A DNA stretch of 64,000 nucleotides. It comes from a phage. Positions within the stretch are counted from its first letter, which is position 1. The number at the start of each line of letters is the position of its first letter. The notes beneath the pieces are model-generated. The model worked only from the letters and a program-made list of their open reading frames with translations, was not told the origin of the DNA and searched no databases. The DNA is taken from the sequence record PZ154896.1. The stretch is one strand, 5' to 3'. Below are positions 59,892 to 63,954 of the stretch, piece after piece. Position numbers and translations under genes: made by a program.

Positions 59892-60440
59892 TTAACGAGC
59901 CCATTTGATAATTTCTGTAATCAAATAATTACGTTCGCTTGCATTAAATCCTATAACTTTGTTAGCGCCATCATGATTAAGTAATTGATACGTTTGGATT
60001 TCGTTATGAATTGCAAACTCTTCAAAATATGAAATGACTGTATTAAACCCGAATGAAGACAAAGTAATAAGGTCGTCTTCAAAACTTTCAGTCATTTCGT
60101 TACGTGTTAAAATAATTGTGAACACATCATGGTTTTGGCAAAGACGAACATAATCCTGTTCATAAACGTCGAGAACCGAGTCCGCATCTTGTCGAATACG
60201 TCCATAAACCCAGTTACTAATATATCCACGGTCTAGCAGATAAATCTTAGTAGGGTCTAAATAATTCAACATCGTTTCGAAACAGCCAACTTCATTTCGA
60301 GACTTAACATCGAAACGTCCATCAACTGTTCGTTTAGGGAAATCAATCTTTACATATCTTTCACTAATTTCCATTATGTCATTAATGAAAGTTGTTTTAC
60401 CAGCATTATCCGGGCCATCTACTAAAATAATTTTAGCCAT
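59892..60440 (-). CDS. thymidylate-kinase-family P-loop nucleotide kinase
   Basis: 182 aa; P-loop ILVDGPDNAGKTT and TMK DRx motif DRGYISNWVYG; GAGGA RBS; 1-nt gap after upstream gene. Confidence 0.65.
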   Translation of the reverse strand: MAKIILVDGPDNAGKTTFINDIMEISERYVKIDFPKRTVDGRFDVKSRNEVGCFETMLNYLDPTKIYLLDRGYISNWVYGRIRQDADSVLDVYEQDYVRLCQNHDVFTIILTRNEMTESFEDDLITLSSFGFNTVISYFEEFAIHNEIQTYQLLNHDGANKVIGFNASERNYLITEIIKWAR

Positions 60441-60441
60441 T

Positions 60442-61341
60442 TTATTCCTCGATTACGACATCTTCATATTTAGGTATATTATACGGCGAAGAAATTAAAG
60501 CATTAAAGTAGATGAACTCACCAAGACCTGGATGGAATACTTCTTCAGGATTTTCGAAATATTGAATCTTCGGTCGTCCTTTAAGAATTTGATAGTACTC
60601 AGTTTTAGTTGGTTTAAAAATTCGAATCAGCGCTTCTTCAGGATACTTATTTCTGTCGAAGCTATTATTTGGATCGGTTATATAAAGCGGTTGACCTAAT
60701 TGAATTGCACATTCAACCACTTGTTCAAAACGATAACACGGGTCACTAATTCGAAATGGATGAAAAATACCATCTAGATGAATAGGAGCCAAATCACCTA
60801 CAAGACGCTGCATGATGGAAGGACGTATAACTTTCTGGGTTACGATAATCTTATTACCATCGGCACCAGCGTTAACCAGCACTTCCTTTTGACGTTTATT
60901 CAACACAGTAGTTTGAAGTGAACGATTAACCGACAGCATGTCGGTTTTTAAGAATTCGTCAATATAAAAACGTGGTTTATTAGGGTCTGCAGTGATATTG
61001 AAATTGAATTCCACATCAAAAGCGCCGTCATATCCAGTGATATCTGTGATTAGAAAATCACAATCATAATAAGCAATTAATGAATCAACAACAAATTCAT
61101 TTTCAGACCAGAAATATTTACGAGTGTTATACGCGTTATCTTTATACCATAATGGAACAAACTTAAATTCCGGAAAAAGACGTTCACATTCTTTAATATC
61201 AGATGCATTACGTGGATATGTAATCACATCACCTGGATTAGCACGGTGCAAATGAAGTTGGAAGTTGCCATCCTTAAGGATAGCATACTGTCCAGTTTCA
61301 TAAGACCGCATACTCAAGATAGGTACGCGGAAAATAGCCAT
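60442..61341 (-). CDS. hypothetical protein (299 aa) in the beta-glucosyltransferase slot
   Basis: ORF track; TAATG overlap with upstream gp42-family gene; no resemblance to T4 beta-gt. Confidence 0.5.
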   Translation of the reverse strand: MAIFRVPILSMRSYETGQYAILKDGNFQLHLHRANPGDVITYPRNASDIKECERLFPEFKFVPLWYKDNAYNTRKYFWSENEFVVDSLIAYYDCDFLITDITGYDGAFDVEFNFNITADPNKPRFYIDEFLKTDMLSVNRSLQTTVLNKRQKEVLVNAGADGNKIIVTQKVIRPSIMQRLVGDLAPIHLDGIFHPFRISDPCYRFEQVVECAIQLGQPLYITDPNNSFDRNKYPEEALIRIFKPTKTEYYQILKGRPKIQYFENPEEVFHPGLGEFIYFNALISSPYNIPKYEDVVIEE

Positions 61342-62057
61342 TAGTCAAGGAATCCTTTAACATAATCAAAATCACGTTCAAACACATGGGCACTTACCAT
61401 GGTATGAGTATAATCACCAACTTCTACACCACATTCGTTAGCGATATAATGAAGTAATTTTCCTTGGAGATAAAAATCCAACTGCATAACAACAGCACAG
61501 TTCTGAGAACGCATATGACAGTGGGTATAAAGCTTACCATCACGAATATAATAAGTCACTGAGTCAGTACATGGATATTCAAGTGTTTCGTCCGAATCAA
61601 GCAAAGCCTGATCTGAACTTTCAAGAATTTGAAACACAACTCTTCGTGAATTAGGTTTCTCTTTAAGTTCTTTTAGAAGAGCTGGTAATTGGGCCGCAAT
61701 GCGAGGACCATAGAAAGTGTTGAAGTTCGCCGGCAAAACATCTGATTTTGGTTTAGAAATAAATTTAGCGACATTAGGATATGCCTTAAACGCTTCTTCT
61801 GCGTTGGTACCGCCAGAAATCATAAACTTCCAGAAGTCTTCGGCATATTCATAAGAGATGCGGTTAATACGTGGGTCGGTCATTTTGAATGTTGACGGGG
61901 TATCAACAACTACTGTCATAGACCCAATTTCATTACAACGTCCAATACGAGAATCAGTTACGAATTCCGGGTTTTCTAAAATTTCACGATTGACTGCTTT
62001 AAATGCGGTTTGAAAATCTGCGGCTTTGATATATTTCATTGTGTTATGTTTTCCCAT
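61341..62057 (-). CDS. thymidylate-synthase/dCMP-hydroxymethylase family enzyme, divergent gp42-like
   Basis: 238 aa; NSRR phosphate site, nucleophile Cys in YPCTDS, Asp in QLDFY at the pyrimidine-specifying position (cytosine-type) but RSQN where TS has RSCD and gp42 RSND; only ~30% identity to T4 gp42 by eye. Confidence 0.65.
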   Translation of the reverse strand: MGKHNTMKYIKAADFQTAFKAVNREILENPEFVTDSRIGRCNEIGSMTVVVDTPSTFKMTDPRINRISYEYAEDFWKFMISGGTNAEEAFKAYPNVAKFISKPKSDVLPANFNTFYGPRIAAQLPALLKELKEKPNSRRVVFQILESSDQALLDSDETLEYPCTDSVTYYIRDGKLYTHCHMRSQNCAVVMQLDFYLQGKLLHYIANECGVEVGDYTHTMVSAHVFERDFDYVKGFLD

Positions 62058-62075
62058 GTTTACCTCAATACAATT

Positions 62076-62101
62076 TATTATATACTCAATTCGTAAAGCT
62101 T
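62076..62101 (-). promoter_or_regulatory. MotA-type middle promoter for the gp42-like operon (MotA box AGCTTTA, -10 TATAAT)
   Basis: MotA-box core 62093-62099 (minus) 11 bp upstream of TATAAT at 62077-62082; ~20 nt before the ATG. Confidence 0.45.
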
Positions 62102-62178: not shown

Positions 62179-62340
62179 TCAGCGTAGTATTCCAATTGAA
62201 CAGGTTTCTTTAATCACTTTAGCCGCTTTAGTTTCAAACAGGCCCATCAGGGCCTTTTTAAGAATTTGTTCGTTGCTGTTAATTTTCGTAGTCAAAATCT
62301 CTTCATTAAGTTGGTGGTTAAAAGTTTTTCTAGAAATCAT
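62179..62340 (-). CDS. possible small protein (53 aa) coupled to the upstream Cys-rich enzyme
   Basis: Manual translation MISRKTFNHQLNEEILTTKINSNEQILKKALMGLFETKAAKVIKETCSIGILR; ATGA overlap with upstream stop; contains GGCCC-ugau-GGGCC hairpin that could instead be a terminator. Confidence 0.3.
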   Translation of the reverse strand: MISRKTFNHQLNEEILTTKINSNEQILKKALMGLFETKAAKVIKETCSIGILR

Positions 62341-63497
62341 TCCGGGTACCTCAAAGCGTCATCAGAGTTAGTTATATCAATAATAGATATAGAGTTTTCT
62401 GCTAACCCGTTTTTAGATAATTGACGTTTATAATATCTTTCACAATATGTACACGTCGTCCCGCAGATTTCATTAGCACAATCGAAATCTGGATGTCTGA
62501 ACCACCTTTTTTCTAAAAAGCCATCTAACAAAGAGGTTTCAATATTTACTGTATGTGAAAACTCTGTCTCATTTTCAAGAGTGAAAATGGTCTCTAAAGG
62601 CTTCCACAGTTCTAACAAATTACCTTCAAACTTTTCAGAAGCATAAGCTTCAAGAACTTTCAAAATGTAGTCTGTGCTACCTGTACGTCCTGAAACTTTG
62701 AATTGAGTGATACCAATATCATTATAAAGTTTCAAATCTTGAGGACGAACAAAACGAGTTCTCAACCAGTTAAATGGATCTGTATCACGAGCTTTAATAC
62801 AGTGCTGCATTGGATATCCATTTAAAGATTTGGCATCATCTACTGTAACATCGGTGCTATGGAAAATATAGCAAGAGTCACGATAACTACAATGTGTTGT
62901 ATACCCTTTACCAGCATTAGAACAGAACTCATTTACAAGAACTTCAAATATTATATTGTTCTTATTACAAAACTCTGCTGCACGCTTCAGGAAAGAAACT
63001 GAACGGTTCTTATGAATTCCGCAGCAGACCTTTTTGATATTATATTGGTCATGCAAGTATTTGATTTGAGTTACAGCATCGACATGTAGAATTGTTGAAA
63101 CTTCAATCTCAATGTCTTTATTGACTTCACGAACAATTTCCATAACAACAGGGTTAGCGATAGTAATACGCCATACGCCTATTGACCAAAGATACTGAAC
63201 ATAATCCTGAATAGCTTTCTTCTTCCACTCAACTAGTTCTCTTTTTGAACCAGGATTTATCGTGTTGAGTGTATAGTTAAAGCAAATACCTAATTCGTTA
63301 CAACGTTTAACGTAATCTTCTAACATCTTTTTGTCAACGTCAGGAAGCCTAAAATCAGGTCTGGCTGCTACAAAAGCCATTTCTCTTGTAGAGCCGTATA
63401 CTTCGTTTATCAAGCTATTAGGATAAGTTTTATTGAGCTCTACGATTTTATCAAGAAGAGCTAAATCAAAATTCGTTCCGATTTTAAAAGTATTCAT
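62337..63497 (-). CDS. Cys-rich TIM-barrel-like enzyme, tentatively U32 family (RlhA/TrhP/UbiU-like)
   Basis: 386 aa; blocks GTNFDLALLDKIVEL, NPVVMEIVREV..IEIEVS and HCSYRDSC resemble U32 motifs (AG.L..L.AAI, DPG.IMLVRE..P...IHLS, C-x6-C); extra C-terminal CX4CX3CX2C cluster. Confidence 0.45.
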   Translation of the reverse strand: MNTFKIGTNFDLALLDKIVELNKTYPNSLINEVYGSTREMAFVAARPDFRLPDVDKKMLEDYVKRCNELGICFNYTLNTINPGSKRELVEWKKKAIQDYVQYLWSIGVWRITIANPVVMEIVREVNKDIEIEVSTILHVDAVTQIKYLHDQYNIKKVCCGIHKNRSVSFLKRAAEFCNKNNIIFEVLVNEFCSNAGKGYTTHCSYRDSCYIFHSTDVTVDDAKSLNGYPMQHCIKARDTDPFNWLRTRFVRPQDLKLYNDIGITQFKVSGRTGSTDYILKVLEAYASEKFEGNLLELWKPLETIFTLENETEFSHTVNIETSLLDGFLEKRWFRHPDFDCANEICGTTCTYCERYYKRQLSKNGLAENSISIIDITNSDDALRYPE

Positions 63498-63552: not shown

Positions 63553-63954
63553 TTATAGATTCGGTTTATATGATTTAAATGTTTCGAATTCGCCTTTATT
63601 CATAAGAGCTTTGAATTCGTCAGGACGCATAGCTTTGTCGTCGATAATCCAATCATATACTGGTTTATGTGTTAGCAAATTATGGTACTTCAATCCAATG
63701 TTTGCCAAGTTCTGAATCAGACTTGGGAGAATGTCAATTGCTATACGACCAGGACCTACTGACTTCATACCGCGAGCAGTGTAAAGCGTTATTGTATGCC
63801 CTGCATCATACAGGGCATTAATGGCAGACACCATTTCGACGTCTGGTTTGAAGTTCACGTAATCACGATTGTTATTCCACTCTGTTATACAATCATCGAC
63901 ATCAAAACAAAGATTAAGCATGTTTTTTACACGGTGCATTAGATTCGTTCCCAT
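63553..63954 (-). CDS. HAD-superfamily phosphatase (small, capless)
   Basis: 133 aa; motif I FDVDDCIT, motif II ITLYTARG, motif III K (HKP), motif IV IIDDK. Confidence 0.6.
   Translation of the reverse strand: MGTNLMHRVKNMLNLCFDVDDCITEWNNNRDYVNFKPDVEMVSAINALYDAGHTITLYTARGMKSVGPGRIAIDILPSLIQNLANIGLKYHNLLTHKPVYDWIIDDKAMRPDEFKALMNKGEFETFKSYKPNL

Follow-up and report, generated by a model that had tools for sequence, protein, structure and literature searches.

A U32-family protein encoded in phage 5-hydroxycytosine gene clusters as a candidate prephenate-dependent pyrimidine C5 hydroxylase

The U32 gene and its product

The DNA analyzed here is a stretch of 64,000 nucleotides from a phage (sequence record PZ154896.1; this whole stretch is called the window below), and the element in question is a gene for a U32-family protein that lies in a cluster of co-directional DNA-modification genes (Table 1). 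The interval of this gene holds exactly one open reading frame (ORF), on the minus strand, which had not been stated in the initial annotation of the window, and the plus-strand reading is filled with stop codons. Over this region, the identity to Escherichia phage ST0 and other Mosigviruses (RB69-like T-even phages) amounts to 98.6%, and the protein is 99.2% identical to RB69ORF050c. The gene differs from each of two other Mosigviruses in 19 synonymous codons and one nonsynonymous codon, and from phage Marfa in 161 and 43, respectively; these counts indicate that it is under purifying selection. A scan for promoters and terminators was uninformative, promoter-like sites being fewer than in shuffled sequence.

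The assignment to the U32 family, tentative in the initial annotation, holds at the levels of the Pfam profile, the fold (PDB 5D88) and the conserved residues. PF01136 (Peptidase_U32) is the only Pfam model that matches the protein (42.4 bits, gathering score 22.4, E=6.3e-11, amino acids 94-286), and neither DUF3656 nor the Peptidase_U32_C domain is present. There is no Pfam match to Thymidylat_synt, so the protein is not a 5-hydroxy-deoxycytidine monophosphate (5-hydroxy-dCMP) synthase of the ThyA type. PHROG 5757 ("peptidase") covers the protein end to end (884 bits), while no NCBIfam model matches at the subfamily level, the UbiU model scoring 19.4 bits with a cutoff of 440. The AlphaFold2 model (pLDDT 90.5) has 5D88 as its best structural match, sharing its TIM-barrel fold. 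This match was found by fold comparison only, as searches of PDB sequences with the protein and then with the family profile gave no meaningful match.

Of 1.84 billion representative proteins, the family profile retrieved 1,670 with E<=1e-3, of which 462 had E<=1e-30, and such low numbers suggest a small distinct clade outside the large RlhA, TrhP and Ubi groups. Judged from these comparisons, the phage protein is a divergent member of the U32 family and putatively an iron-sulfur (Fe-S) enzyme.

Table 1. The U32 gene, its features and its neighbors (positions in the window)
Feature	Position	Strand	Basis
U32-family protein, 386 amino acids; candidate prephenate-dependent pyrimidine C5 hydroxylase	62337..63497	-	ORF; ortholog of RB69ORF050c / RB69p050 (NP_861740.1)
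Stretch matched by Pfam Peptidase_U32, amino acids 94-286, portion of the TIM-barrel core	62640..63218	-	profile match
Cys cluster 1, C192-X10-C203-X5-C209-X23-C233, putative [4Fe-4S] site	62799..62924	-	translation and alignment
C-terminal CX4CX3CX2C cluster (C340, C345, C349, C352), putative second metal or Fe-S site	62442..62480	-	translation
HAD phosphatase (RB69 gp51 / AfhF-like), UDP-arabinose pathway, directly upstream of U32	63553..63954	-	PHROG/NCBIfam; PMC13326640
Small ORF, 53 amino acids, RB69ORF049c-like, in the slot of the chorismate mutase of relatives	62179..62340	-	ORF, comparison
ThyA homolog, 5-hydroxy-dCMP synthase, RB69 gp48 ortholog, flavin- and O2-dependent	61341..62057	-	Pfam/PHROG; E143, N169
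Putative DNA arabinosyltransferase 1 (AT1), 299 amino acids, RB69 gp46:47 ortholog	60442..61341	-	PHROG 3891; PMC13326640 Table 1
Thymidylate-kinase-like nucleotide kinase, RB69 gp45 ortholog	59892..60440	-	PHROG 761

Conserved residues and comparison with known U32 enzymes

Ten cysteines are invariant among 34 homologs with identity down to 48% (C158, C177, C192, C203, C209, C233, C340, C345, C349, C352), and E185 is nearly invariant in the phage U32 family. The motifs on which the initial annotation relied are all found in the translation, namely the IVRE..IEIEVS block, present as IVREVNKDIEIEVS (amino acids 121-134), the Cys pair resembling the U32 signature, present in THCSYRDSCYIFHS (C203 and C209), and the C-terminal CX4CX3CX2C cluster, present as CANEICGTTCTYC. 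The comparison with U32 profiles and structures that it had proposed as a check gave, in addition to the fold match with 5D88, an hhalign match to RlhA (probability 75%, E=2.5e-5, 204 columns, amino acids 54-285), the best one among the E. coli proteins; the matches to TrhP (E=3e-3), UbiU (9e-3) and UbiV (0.15) are weaker.

In the joint alignment, C209 of the phage protein coincides exactly with RlhA C176, TrhP C177 and UbiU C176, whereas C203 is one residue off C169/C170, the phage pair thus being CX5C and not CX6C. C233 aligns with C192/C193 of RlhA, TrhP and UbiU, E185 aligns with RlhA E161, and the phage FKVSGR with the FKIEGR motif. RlhA requires prephenate, Fe-S biogenesis, E161, C169, C176 and the C-terminal C580 and C611 (PMC5727448), and the invariant C-terminal Cys4 cluster of the phage protein putatively parallels these essential C-terminal cysteines.

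RlhA (YdcP) makes 5-hydroxycytidine at C2501 of 23S rRNA, that is, it hydroxylates cytosine at C5, and the same chemistry is proposed here for the phage protein. The two proteins have in common the U32 domain, the equivalents of E161 and C169/C176 (E185 and C203/C209) and an additional C-terminal Cys cluster, although by hhalign probability the likeness in sequence is marginal. They differ in that RlhA comprises 653 amino acids with DUF3656 and acts on the ribosome, while the phage protein has the CX5C spacing and occurs in a deoxynucleotide context; lacking DUF3656, and with 386 amino acids versus about 650, it is not an RlhA ortholog.

TrhP (YegQ) is responsible for the prephenate-dependent synthesis of 5-hydroxyuridine (ho5U) in tRNA and is redundant with the O2-dependent TrhO (PMC6599085). 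This pair, in which unrelated prephenate- and O2-dependent enzymes yield the same 5-hydroxypyrimidine, resembles the combination of U32 with a ThyA homolog using flavin and O2 in the window, but the redundancy of TrhP and TrhO is proven, while that of U32 and ThyA is only inferred. Besides, TrhP acts on tRNA uridine, has another C-terminal domain, and is only weakly similar to the phage protein.

UbiU and UbiV each bind one [4Fe-4S] cluster by four cysteines (PMC6747719), and 18O labelling has identified the oxygen donor of UbiUV as prephenate, with the same chemistry proposed by the authors for the whole family (PMC10990095). The phage protein would have in common with them a Cys-bound [4Fe-4S] cluster, a relocated ligand (proposed here for C192, see below) and the role of an anaerobic counterpart of flavin/O2 hydroxylases. 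In contrast, UbiU and UbiV form a heterodimer, require UbiT and have a lipid substrate, and the neighbors of the phage U32 gene include no UbiT-like gene. With the UbiU score far below its cutoff (see above) and no UbiT-like neighbor in the window, the phage protein does not classify as an ortholog of UbiU or UbiV. Mk0906 (PDB 5D88), which has the only solved U32 structure, is 12-14% identical to the phage protein, is shorter (247 versus 386 amino acids), and lacks the C-terminal Cys4 extension.

A second, very divergent U32 paralog (377 amino acids, 22% identical) is encoded 4 kb downstream of the first one in two of the divergent loci described below (L008:13227-14360 and L057:15227-16360). 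It directly follows a radical-SAM/SPASM gene and retains the NE[FS]C cysteine and the C-terminal Cys cluster. By analogy, the two U32 proteins of L008 and L057 may form a heterodimer similar to that of UbiU and UbiV.

Gene neighborhood and the 5-hydroxycytosine pathway

The gene order on the minus strand is HAD phosphatase, U32, small ORF, ThyA homolog, AT1, thymidylate-kinase-like protein. The DNA of RB69 contains arabinosylated 5-hydroxycytosine (5hoC) instead of hydroxymethylcytosine (PMC13326640, Lee et al., NAR 2026). According to the same study, the RB69 ThyA homolog gp48 makes 5-hydroxy-dCMP with flavin, incorporating 18O2; 5hoC enters DNA via the nucleotide pool; gp46:47 is the predicted first arabinosyltransferase; and gp51, gp52:53 and gp55 make UDP-arabinose (PMC13326640). 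The ThyA homolog of the window carries the residues that mark the hydroxylase, E143 and N169 (E. coli numbering). Since this adjacent homolog is the known 5-hydroxy-dCMP synthase, U32 would be a second route here and not the sole one. The product proposed for U32 and its place in the pathway are the same as those of the phage ThyA-type synthases (RB69 gp48, DLP3 gp80, the HY126 homolog), while the latter differ in having the thymidylate synthase fold, in using flavin and O2, and in occurring in phages of strict aerobes that have no U32.

The RB69 ortholog of the U32 protein, RB69p050, appears in PMC13326640 only in Table 1, where it is labelled "Sugar or heterocycle reductase" and 5D88 is given as its structural match, and the words U32, prephenate, peptidase and chorismate are absent from the text of that paper. 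The studies on RlhA and TrhP are mentioned in its discussion as examples of unrelated pathways of pyrimidine hydroxylation, the presence of the same family in the cluster being unmentioned. In the searchable literature, outside which He et al. 2026 and Mahler et al. 2025 fall, there is no paper that connects phage 5hoC with U32, prephenate or chorismate mutase. In GenBank, the U32 gene of phage LC53 is labelled "putative peptidase".

The small ORF that follows U32 has no Pfam match. It comprises 53 amino acids in the window and in phi25-307, and 79 in phiE142; the reading in the window continues in another frame to position 62099, the difference being one additional A in an A-run (aaagaaacc versus aaag-aacc in phiE142), which is a frameshift polymorphism or else an error of sequencing. 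The possibility that this ORF is a degenerate or frameshifted chorismate mutase was rejected, as even the 79-residue form has no CM_2 match and the ORF co-occurs with a separate mutase gene in L016, L022, L025 and L029 (L numbers denote the compared loci).

Chorismate mutase and DAHP synthase genes adjacent to U32

In Enterobacter phage Entb_45, a gene of 79 codons, which overlaps U32 on one side and the ThyA homolog on the other, encodes a chorismate mutase (Pfam CM_2, 40.9 bits with a cutoff of 27). A tblastn search found this gene in 56 phage records, always in the slot adjacent to U32 and preceding the ThyA homolog. The hosts include Klebsiella, Serratia (among others, phages LC53 and 92A1), Yersinia, Enterobacter, Edwardsiella, Erwinia, Proteus, Pectobacterium, Shewanella, Providencia and Morganella. 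The phage mutases retain the catalytic residues of the E. coli chorismate mutase (R11, R28, K39, E52, S84, Q88). Among Enterobacter phages, nine have ThyA, four U32 and four the mutase, the respective numbers for Serratia phages being 9, 7 and 7; these genus counts are consistent with the mutase being confined to U32-bearing genomes.

In more divergent loci, U32 is flanked by fusions of 3-deoxy-D-arabino-heptulosonate 7-phosphate (DAHP) synthase with chorismate mutase (L039, L042, L043; DAHP_synth_1 85-125 bits, CM_2 65-86 bits), by a lone DAHP synthase (L010), or by a lone chorismate mutase (L045, L056, L061, L062). With NCBIfam models, the three fusions score 124-163 bits as DAHP synthases and 30-53 bits as 3-deoxy-D-manno-octulosonate 8-phosphate (KDO8P) synthase. 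The assumption that the DAHP_synth_1 neighbors are KDO8P synthases, which would link them to arabinose 5-phosphate, was rejected, as their scores are 124-237 versus 30-63 bits and three of them are fused to the mutase. The bifunctional proteins, with the mutase at the C-terminus, are encoded in L039:8411-9433, L042:7302-8357, L043:8332-9387, L041:9-971 and L059:8931-9959. They are followed by a KdsC-like HAD phosphatase and then U32 in L039, L041, L042 and L043, and directly by U32 in L059, which is a contig in a Gastranaerophilaceae metagenome-assembled genome (MAG), the other fusion-bearing contigs being viral. Apparently, the fusions serve as auxiliary metabolic genes of the shikimate pathway.

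Both RlhA (PMC5727448) and TrhP (PMC6599085) require prephenate. As prephenate is the established oxygen donor of U32 enzymes, the mutase and DAHP synthase genes next to U32 suggest that the phage enzyme is prephenate-dependent and O2-independent. The demand would be considerable: with about 63,500 cytosines per genome, the hydroxylations needed for a burst of 50 to 200 phages come roughly to between 3e6 and 1.3e7, while a cell makes about 5e7 Phe plus Tyr per doubling, by general values of cell composition. Stoichiometric use of prephenate would be a real metabolic load and would explain why phages carry chorismate mutase and DAHP synthase.

Divergent phage loci

U32 homologs with 40-58% identity are common in metagenomes, and the comparison comprised 31 loci of this divergent kind, collected by contig look-ups and a scan of IMG/VR, as well as 11 loci from bacterial genomes and MAGs. 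Neighboring genes were tabulated with iteratively built hidden Markov models. Among 49 U32 loci, homologs of the kinase are found in 39, of AT1 in 37, of AfhE in 27 and of the SIS isomerase in 21. The ThyA homolog of the 5-hydroxy-dCMP type is present in 17 of the 49, exactly the T-even-like ones, and in none of the 31 divergent loci within 8-10 kb. A ThyA-like match in L030 was rejected as a hydroxylase, being a canonical dTMP synthase (244 bits with Pfam; L143, D169, N177).

The kinase and the AT1 glycosyltransferase each occur in 16 of the 19 divergent loci that have at least 5 kb on both sides of U32. The gene orders include kinase-AT1-U32, AT1-SIS-AfhE-HAD-U32 and U32-chorismate mutase-AT1-AfhE, as well as AT1, SIS, AfhE, kinase, the DAHP synthase-chorismate mutase fusion (in some loci), HAD, U32. 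The association of U32 with the kinase and AT1 persists when the sugar genes differ (TAGT-like transferases in L011 and L036; UDP-galactopyranose mutase, GLF, in L011), and in eight loci the three genes occur without the genes for arabinose activation (L011, L012, L031, L035, L036, L040, L044, L050).

When the 137 ORFs around U32 in 24 representative loci were classified with Pfam, the families obtained were thymidylate kinase (the commonest family), DNA polymerase III alpha, DAHP synthase, NTP transferase, SIS, CM_2, UDG, dUTPase and dCMP deaminase; no other oxygenase was found among the families with at least two members in this set. By gene content, U32 is the only recurrent hydroxylase candidate beside the kinase and the DNA glycosyltransferase in divergent phages.

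Several arrangements of neighboring genes were observed in addition. A dCMP deaminase gene and the start of U32 overlap in L007:7447-8004 and L049:9540-10004 (one of the contigs is 466 kb long), which suggests translational coupling and a role at the dCMP level. An AT1-type glycosyltransferase is fused to a thymidylate-kinase-like protein, making up about 550-600 amino acids, in L037, L046, L048, L051 and L059, in support of a functional link between AT1 and the kinase. Radical-SAM (SPASM) genes recur near divergent U32 genes (L012:5980-7011, L007:1-249, L008:12160-13185, L060, L063); in L012 this gene is situated between the kinase and the glycosyltransferase.

Phyletic distribution and oxygen

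The ThyA-type synthase was identified in 374 phage records, including 57 Acinetobacter phages, 20 Rhizobium phages, and Agrobacterium phages. U32 was identified by tblastn in 222 phage records, all with at least 80% identity, and the hosts of all of them are Enterobacterales or Shewanella; among ThyA-bearing phages of the strict aerobes Acinetobacter and Rhizobium, U32 is absent. For instance, Acinetobacter phage DLP3 has the isomerase, AfhE, HAD, ThyA, AT1 and the kinase, while the gap between HAD and ThyA is empty, with neither U32 nor the mutase. Genome records of the divergent clade belong mostly to obligate anaerobes (Erysipelotrichales, Oscillospiraceae, Gastranaerophilaceae, Romboutsia, Tannerella, Phocaeicola). 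In these records, U32 is restricted to hosts able to live without O2.

Proposed function and alternative explanations

We consider it rather probable that the phage U32 protein is an O2-independent, prephenate-using C5 hydroxylase of a pyrimidine deoxynucleotide, with the conversion of dCMP to 5-hydroxy-dCMP as the most likely reaction, parallel to that of the ThyA homolog. The substrate, the O2 independence and the division of labor with the ThyA homolog are what we infer from gene context, distribution and the chemistry of the family. According to this scheme, U32 would oxidize C5 of the pyrimidine in dCMP, the Fe-S cluster or clusters removing two electrons, while prephenate would decarboxylate, provide hydroxide and leave phenylpyruvate (following the scheme in PMC10990095). 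The co-clustered kinase would then phosphorylate 5-hydroxy-dCMP, the polymerase would incorporate the product, and AT1 would glycosylate (here, arabinosylate) 5-hydroxycytosine in DNA. In Mosigviruses, U32 alongside the flavin/O2 ThyA enzyme would allow for fully modified DNA both in the anoxic gut and in air, an arrangement comparable to TrhP/TrhO for ho5U in tRNA and to UbiUV/UbiIHF for ubiquinone. The initial annotation had suggested hydroxylation of a pyrimidine base in nucleotides or in DNA; this suggestion is supported, short of proof, by the 5hoC DNA, the adjoining chorismate mutase and the divergent loci.

To the broader proposal we give about an even chance: this clade would be the first among the U32 hydroxylases to act on DNA precursors, serving as the only route to 5hoC in phages of obligate anaerobes and as an anaerobic twin of ThyA in T-even-like phages, with the mutase and DAHP synthase as auxiliary metabolic genes by which the shikimate pathway of the host is rewired.

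Several observations weigh against the proposed function. The RB69 ThyA homolog and the dNMP kinase suffice for 5-hydroxydeoxycytidine in aerobic E. coli (PMC13326640), U32 thus being unneeded in air. About 60 phages of Enterobacterales, for example, Dhakavirus dhabil, have the ThyA enzyme without U32, which is therefore not universal even with facultatively anaerobic hosts. The Mosigviruses, including the window, and Marfavirus have no chorismate mutase, its slot being occupied by the unrelated small ORF. The aerobe/anaerobe split is confounded with phage phylogeny, the binning of phage contigs into MAGs is weak evidence of the host, and the absence of ThyA from the divergent loci covers 8-10 kb on each side. 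Finally, the CX6CX15CX3/4C motif is common to most U32 families, with one ligand moved in UbiU (CX6CX16CX38C) and UbiV (CXnCX12CX3C) (PMC6747719), and of this canonical motif the phage protein keeps the positions of C203, C209 and C233, while the fourth Cys is absent. By analogy with UbiU and UbiV, the invariant C192 (in NEFC, present also in the divergent paralog of L008) is a candidate replacement for it.

Among the alternatives, the same chemistry could be applied to polymerized DNA, U32 hydroxylating those cytosines that were left unmodified after replication. All characterized U32 enzymes of nucleic acids indeed act on polymers (PMC5727448, PMC6599085), and RlhA is the closest E. coli relative of the phage protein. 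Still, we regard this as unlikely, as U32 co-travels with the thymidylate-kinase-like kinase (see the counts above) and is found near genes for dCMP deaminase, NT5C and dNK, which is the signature of a pathway at the monophosphate level. Moreover, the phage protein has none of the accessory domains of RlhA and TrhP, and the 5hoC of RB69 reaches DNA through the nucleotide pool (PMC13326640).

A role in the sugar branch or with another small molecule, such as tailoring of the arabinose donor, is quite improbable. It would agree with the "sugar or heterocycle reductase" label, with the position of U32, which has the HAD phosphatase of the UDP-arabinose pathway on one side and the base-modifying genes on the other, and with the TIM barrel, common to many sugar-phosphate enzymes, but we know of no U32 member that is a sugar reductase. 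U32 stays with the kinase and AT1 in the eight loci without arabinose-activation genes, as well as with TAGT and GLF, and DLP3 makes tri-arabinosyl-5hoC without U32 (PMC13326640). The link with chorismate mutase and DAHP synthase would also be left unexplained.

We consider it very improbable that the protein is an RNA hydroxylase similar to TrhP or RlhA, producing ho5U34 in tRNA or 5-hydroxycytidine (ho5C) 2501 in rRNA and tuning translation during infection. These are the sole proven activities of the U32 family on nucleic acids, and T-even phages encode tRNAs. However, U32 is situated inside the DNA-modification cluster in every T-even-like locus and is missing from T-even-like phages without the 5hoC pathway, all 222 tblastn matches being at least 80% identical and each T-even-like locus inspected also having the 5hoC cluster, while in divergent phages U32 is found beside genes for DNA replication and nucleotide metabolism; furthermore, the domains DUF3656 and Peptidase_U32_C are missing by Pfam, and E. 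coli already possesses TrhP and RlhA. That the protein is a genuine peptidase of the collagenase type, as the mostly "peptidase", "collagenase-like protease" and "putative protease" labels in GenBank and the historical family name would have it, is extremely improbable, since ten cysteines, grouped in two clusters, are invariant, as are the Glu and Cys that hydroxylation by RlhA requires, the context is nucleotide metabolism and the shikimate pathway, and U32 proteolysis has no known catalytic mechanism (PMC5727448).

Implications

Taken together, the profile comparisons and gene contexts support a clade of putative U32 hydroxylases tied to the modification of DNA precursors and distinct from the RlhA, TrhP and Ubi groups. 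If the proposed function is correct, it would supply what is missing from a pathway known only since 2025-2026, in which all cytosine is replaced and the known 5-hydroxy-dCMP synthase needs O2, and it would explain how these phages of gut bacteria replicate in anoxia; the U32 gene is then predicted to be essential for 5hoC DNA solely when O2 is absent. The chemistry with prephenate as the oxygen donor would then extend from RNA and quinones to DNA building blocks, and the shikimate-pathway genes of phages would be explained as supplying millions of oxygen-donor molecules per burst.

Under the same condition, candidates for phage therapy (Mosigvirus; phages of Klebsiella, Serratia and Yersinia) might differ in anaerobic fitness depending on the U32 gene, the aro, pheA and tyrA status of the host could influence phage susceptibility, and the U32 gene could serve as a marker of 5-hydroxypyrimidine DNA in uncultured phages with anaerobic hosts. 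To our knowledge, no U32 hydroxylase has so far been reconstituted in vitro, and a soluble enzyme of 386 amino acids with a simple nucleotide substrate could provide such a system.

Other genomic contexts of U32

In the viral contig L038, an IS605 OrfB / Cas12f-like (TnpB-type) gene (L038:8689-9951) is inserted between the HAD phosphatase and U32. L008, one of the two loci with paired U32 genes, also carries dockerin and GH43 genes.

A second context of U32 consists of GP88 (PF17338), an S-adenosylmethionine (SAM) methyltransferase, a protein of about 265 amino acids and U32, as in L066:3044-7137 from an isolate of Phocaeicola faecalis, and the same combination is present in L008, L009, L057, L063, L064 and L065. 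The records with this cassette are assigned to Bacteroidota, Bacillota, BRC1 and Woesearchaeota. By analogy with the conversion of ho5U to 5-methoxyuridine (mo5U) in tRNA, the cassette might make 5-methoxy-pyrimidine nucleotides. In L066, the methyltransferase is fused to a guanylate kinase, and the cassette is surrounded by chromosomal-looking genes.

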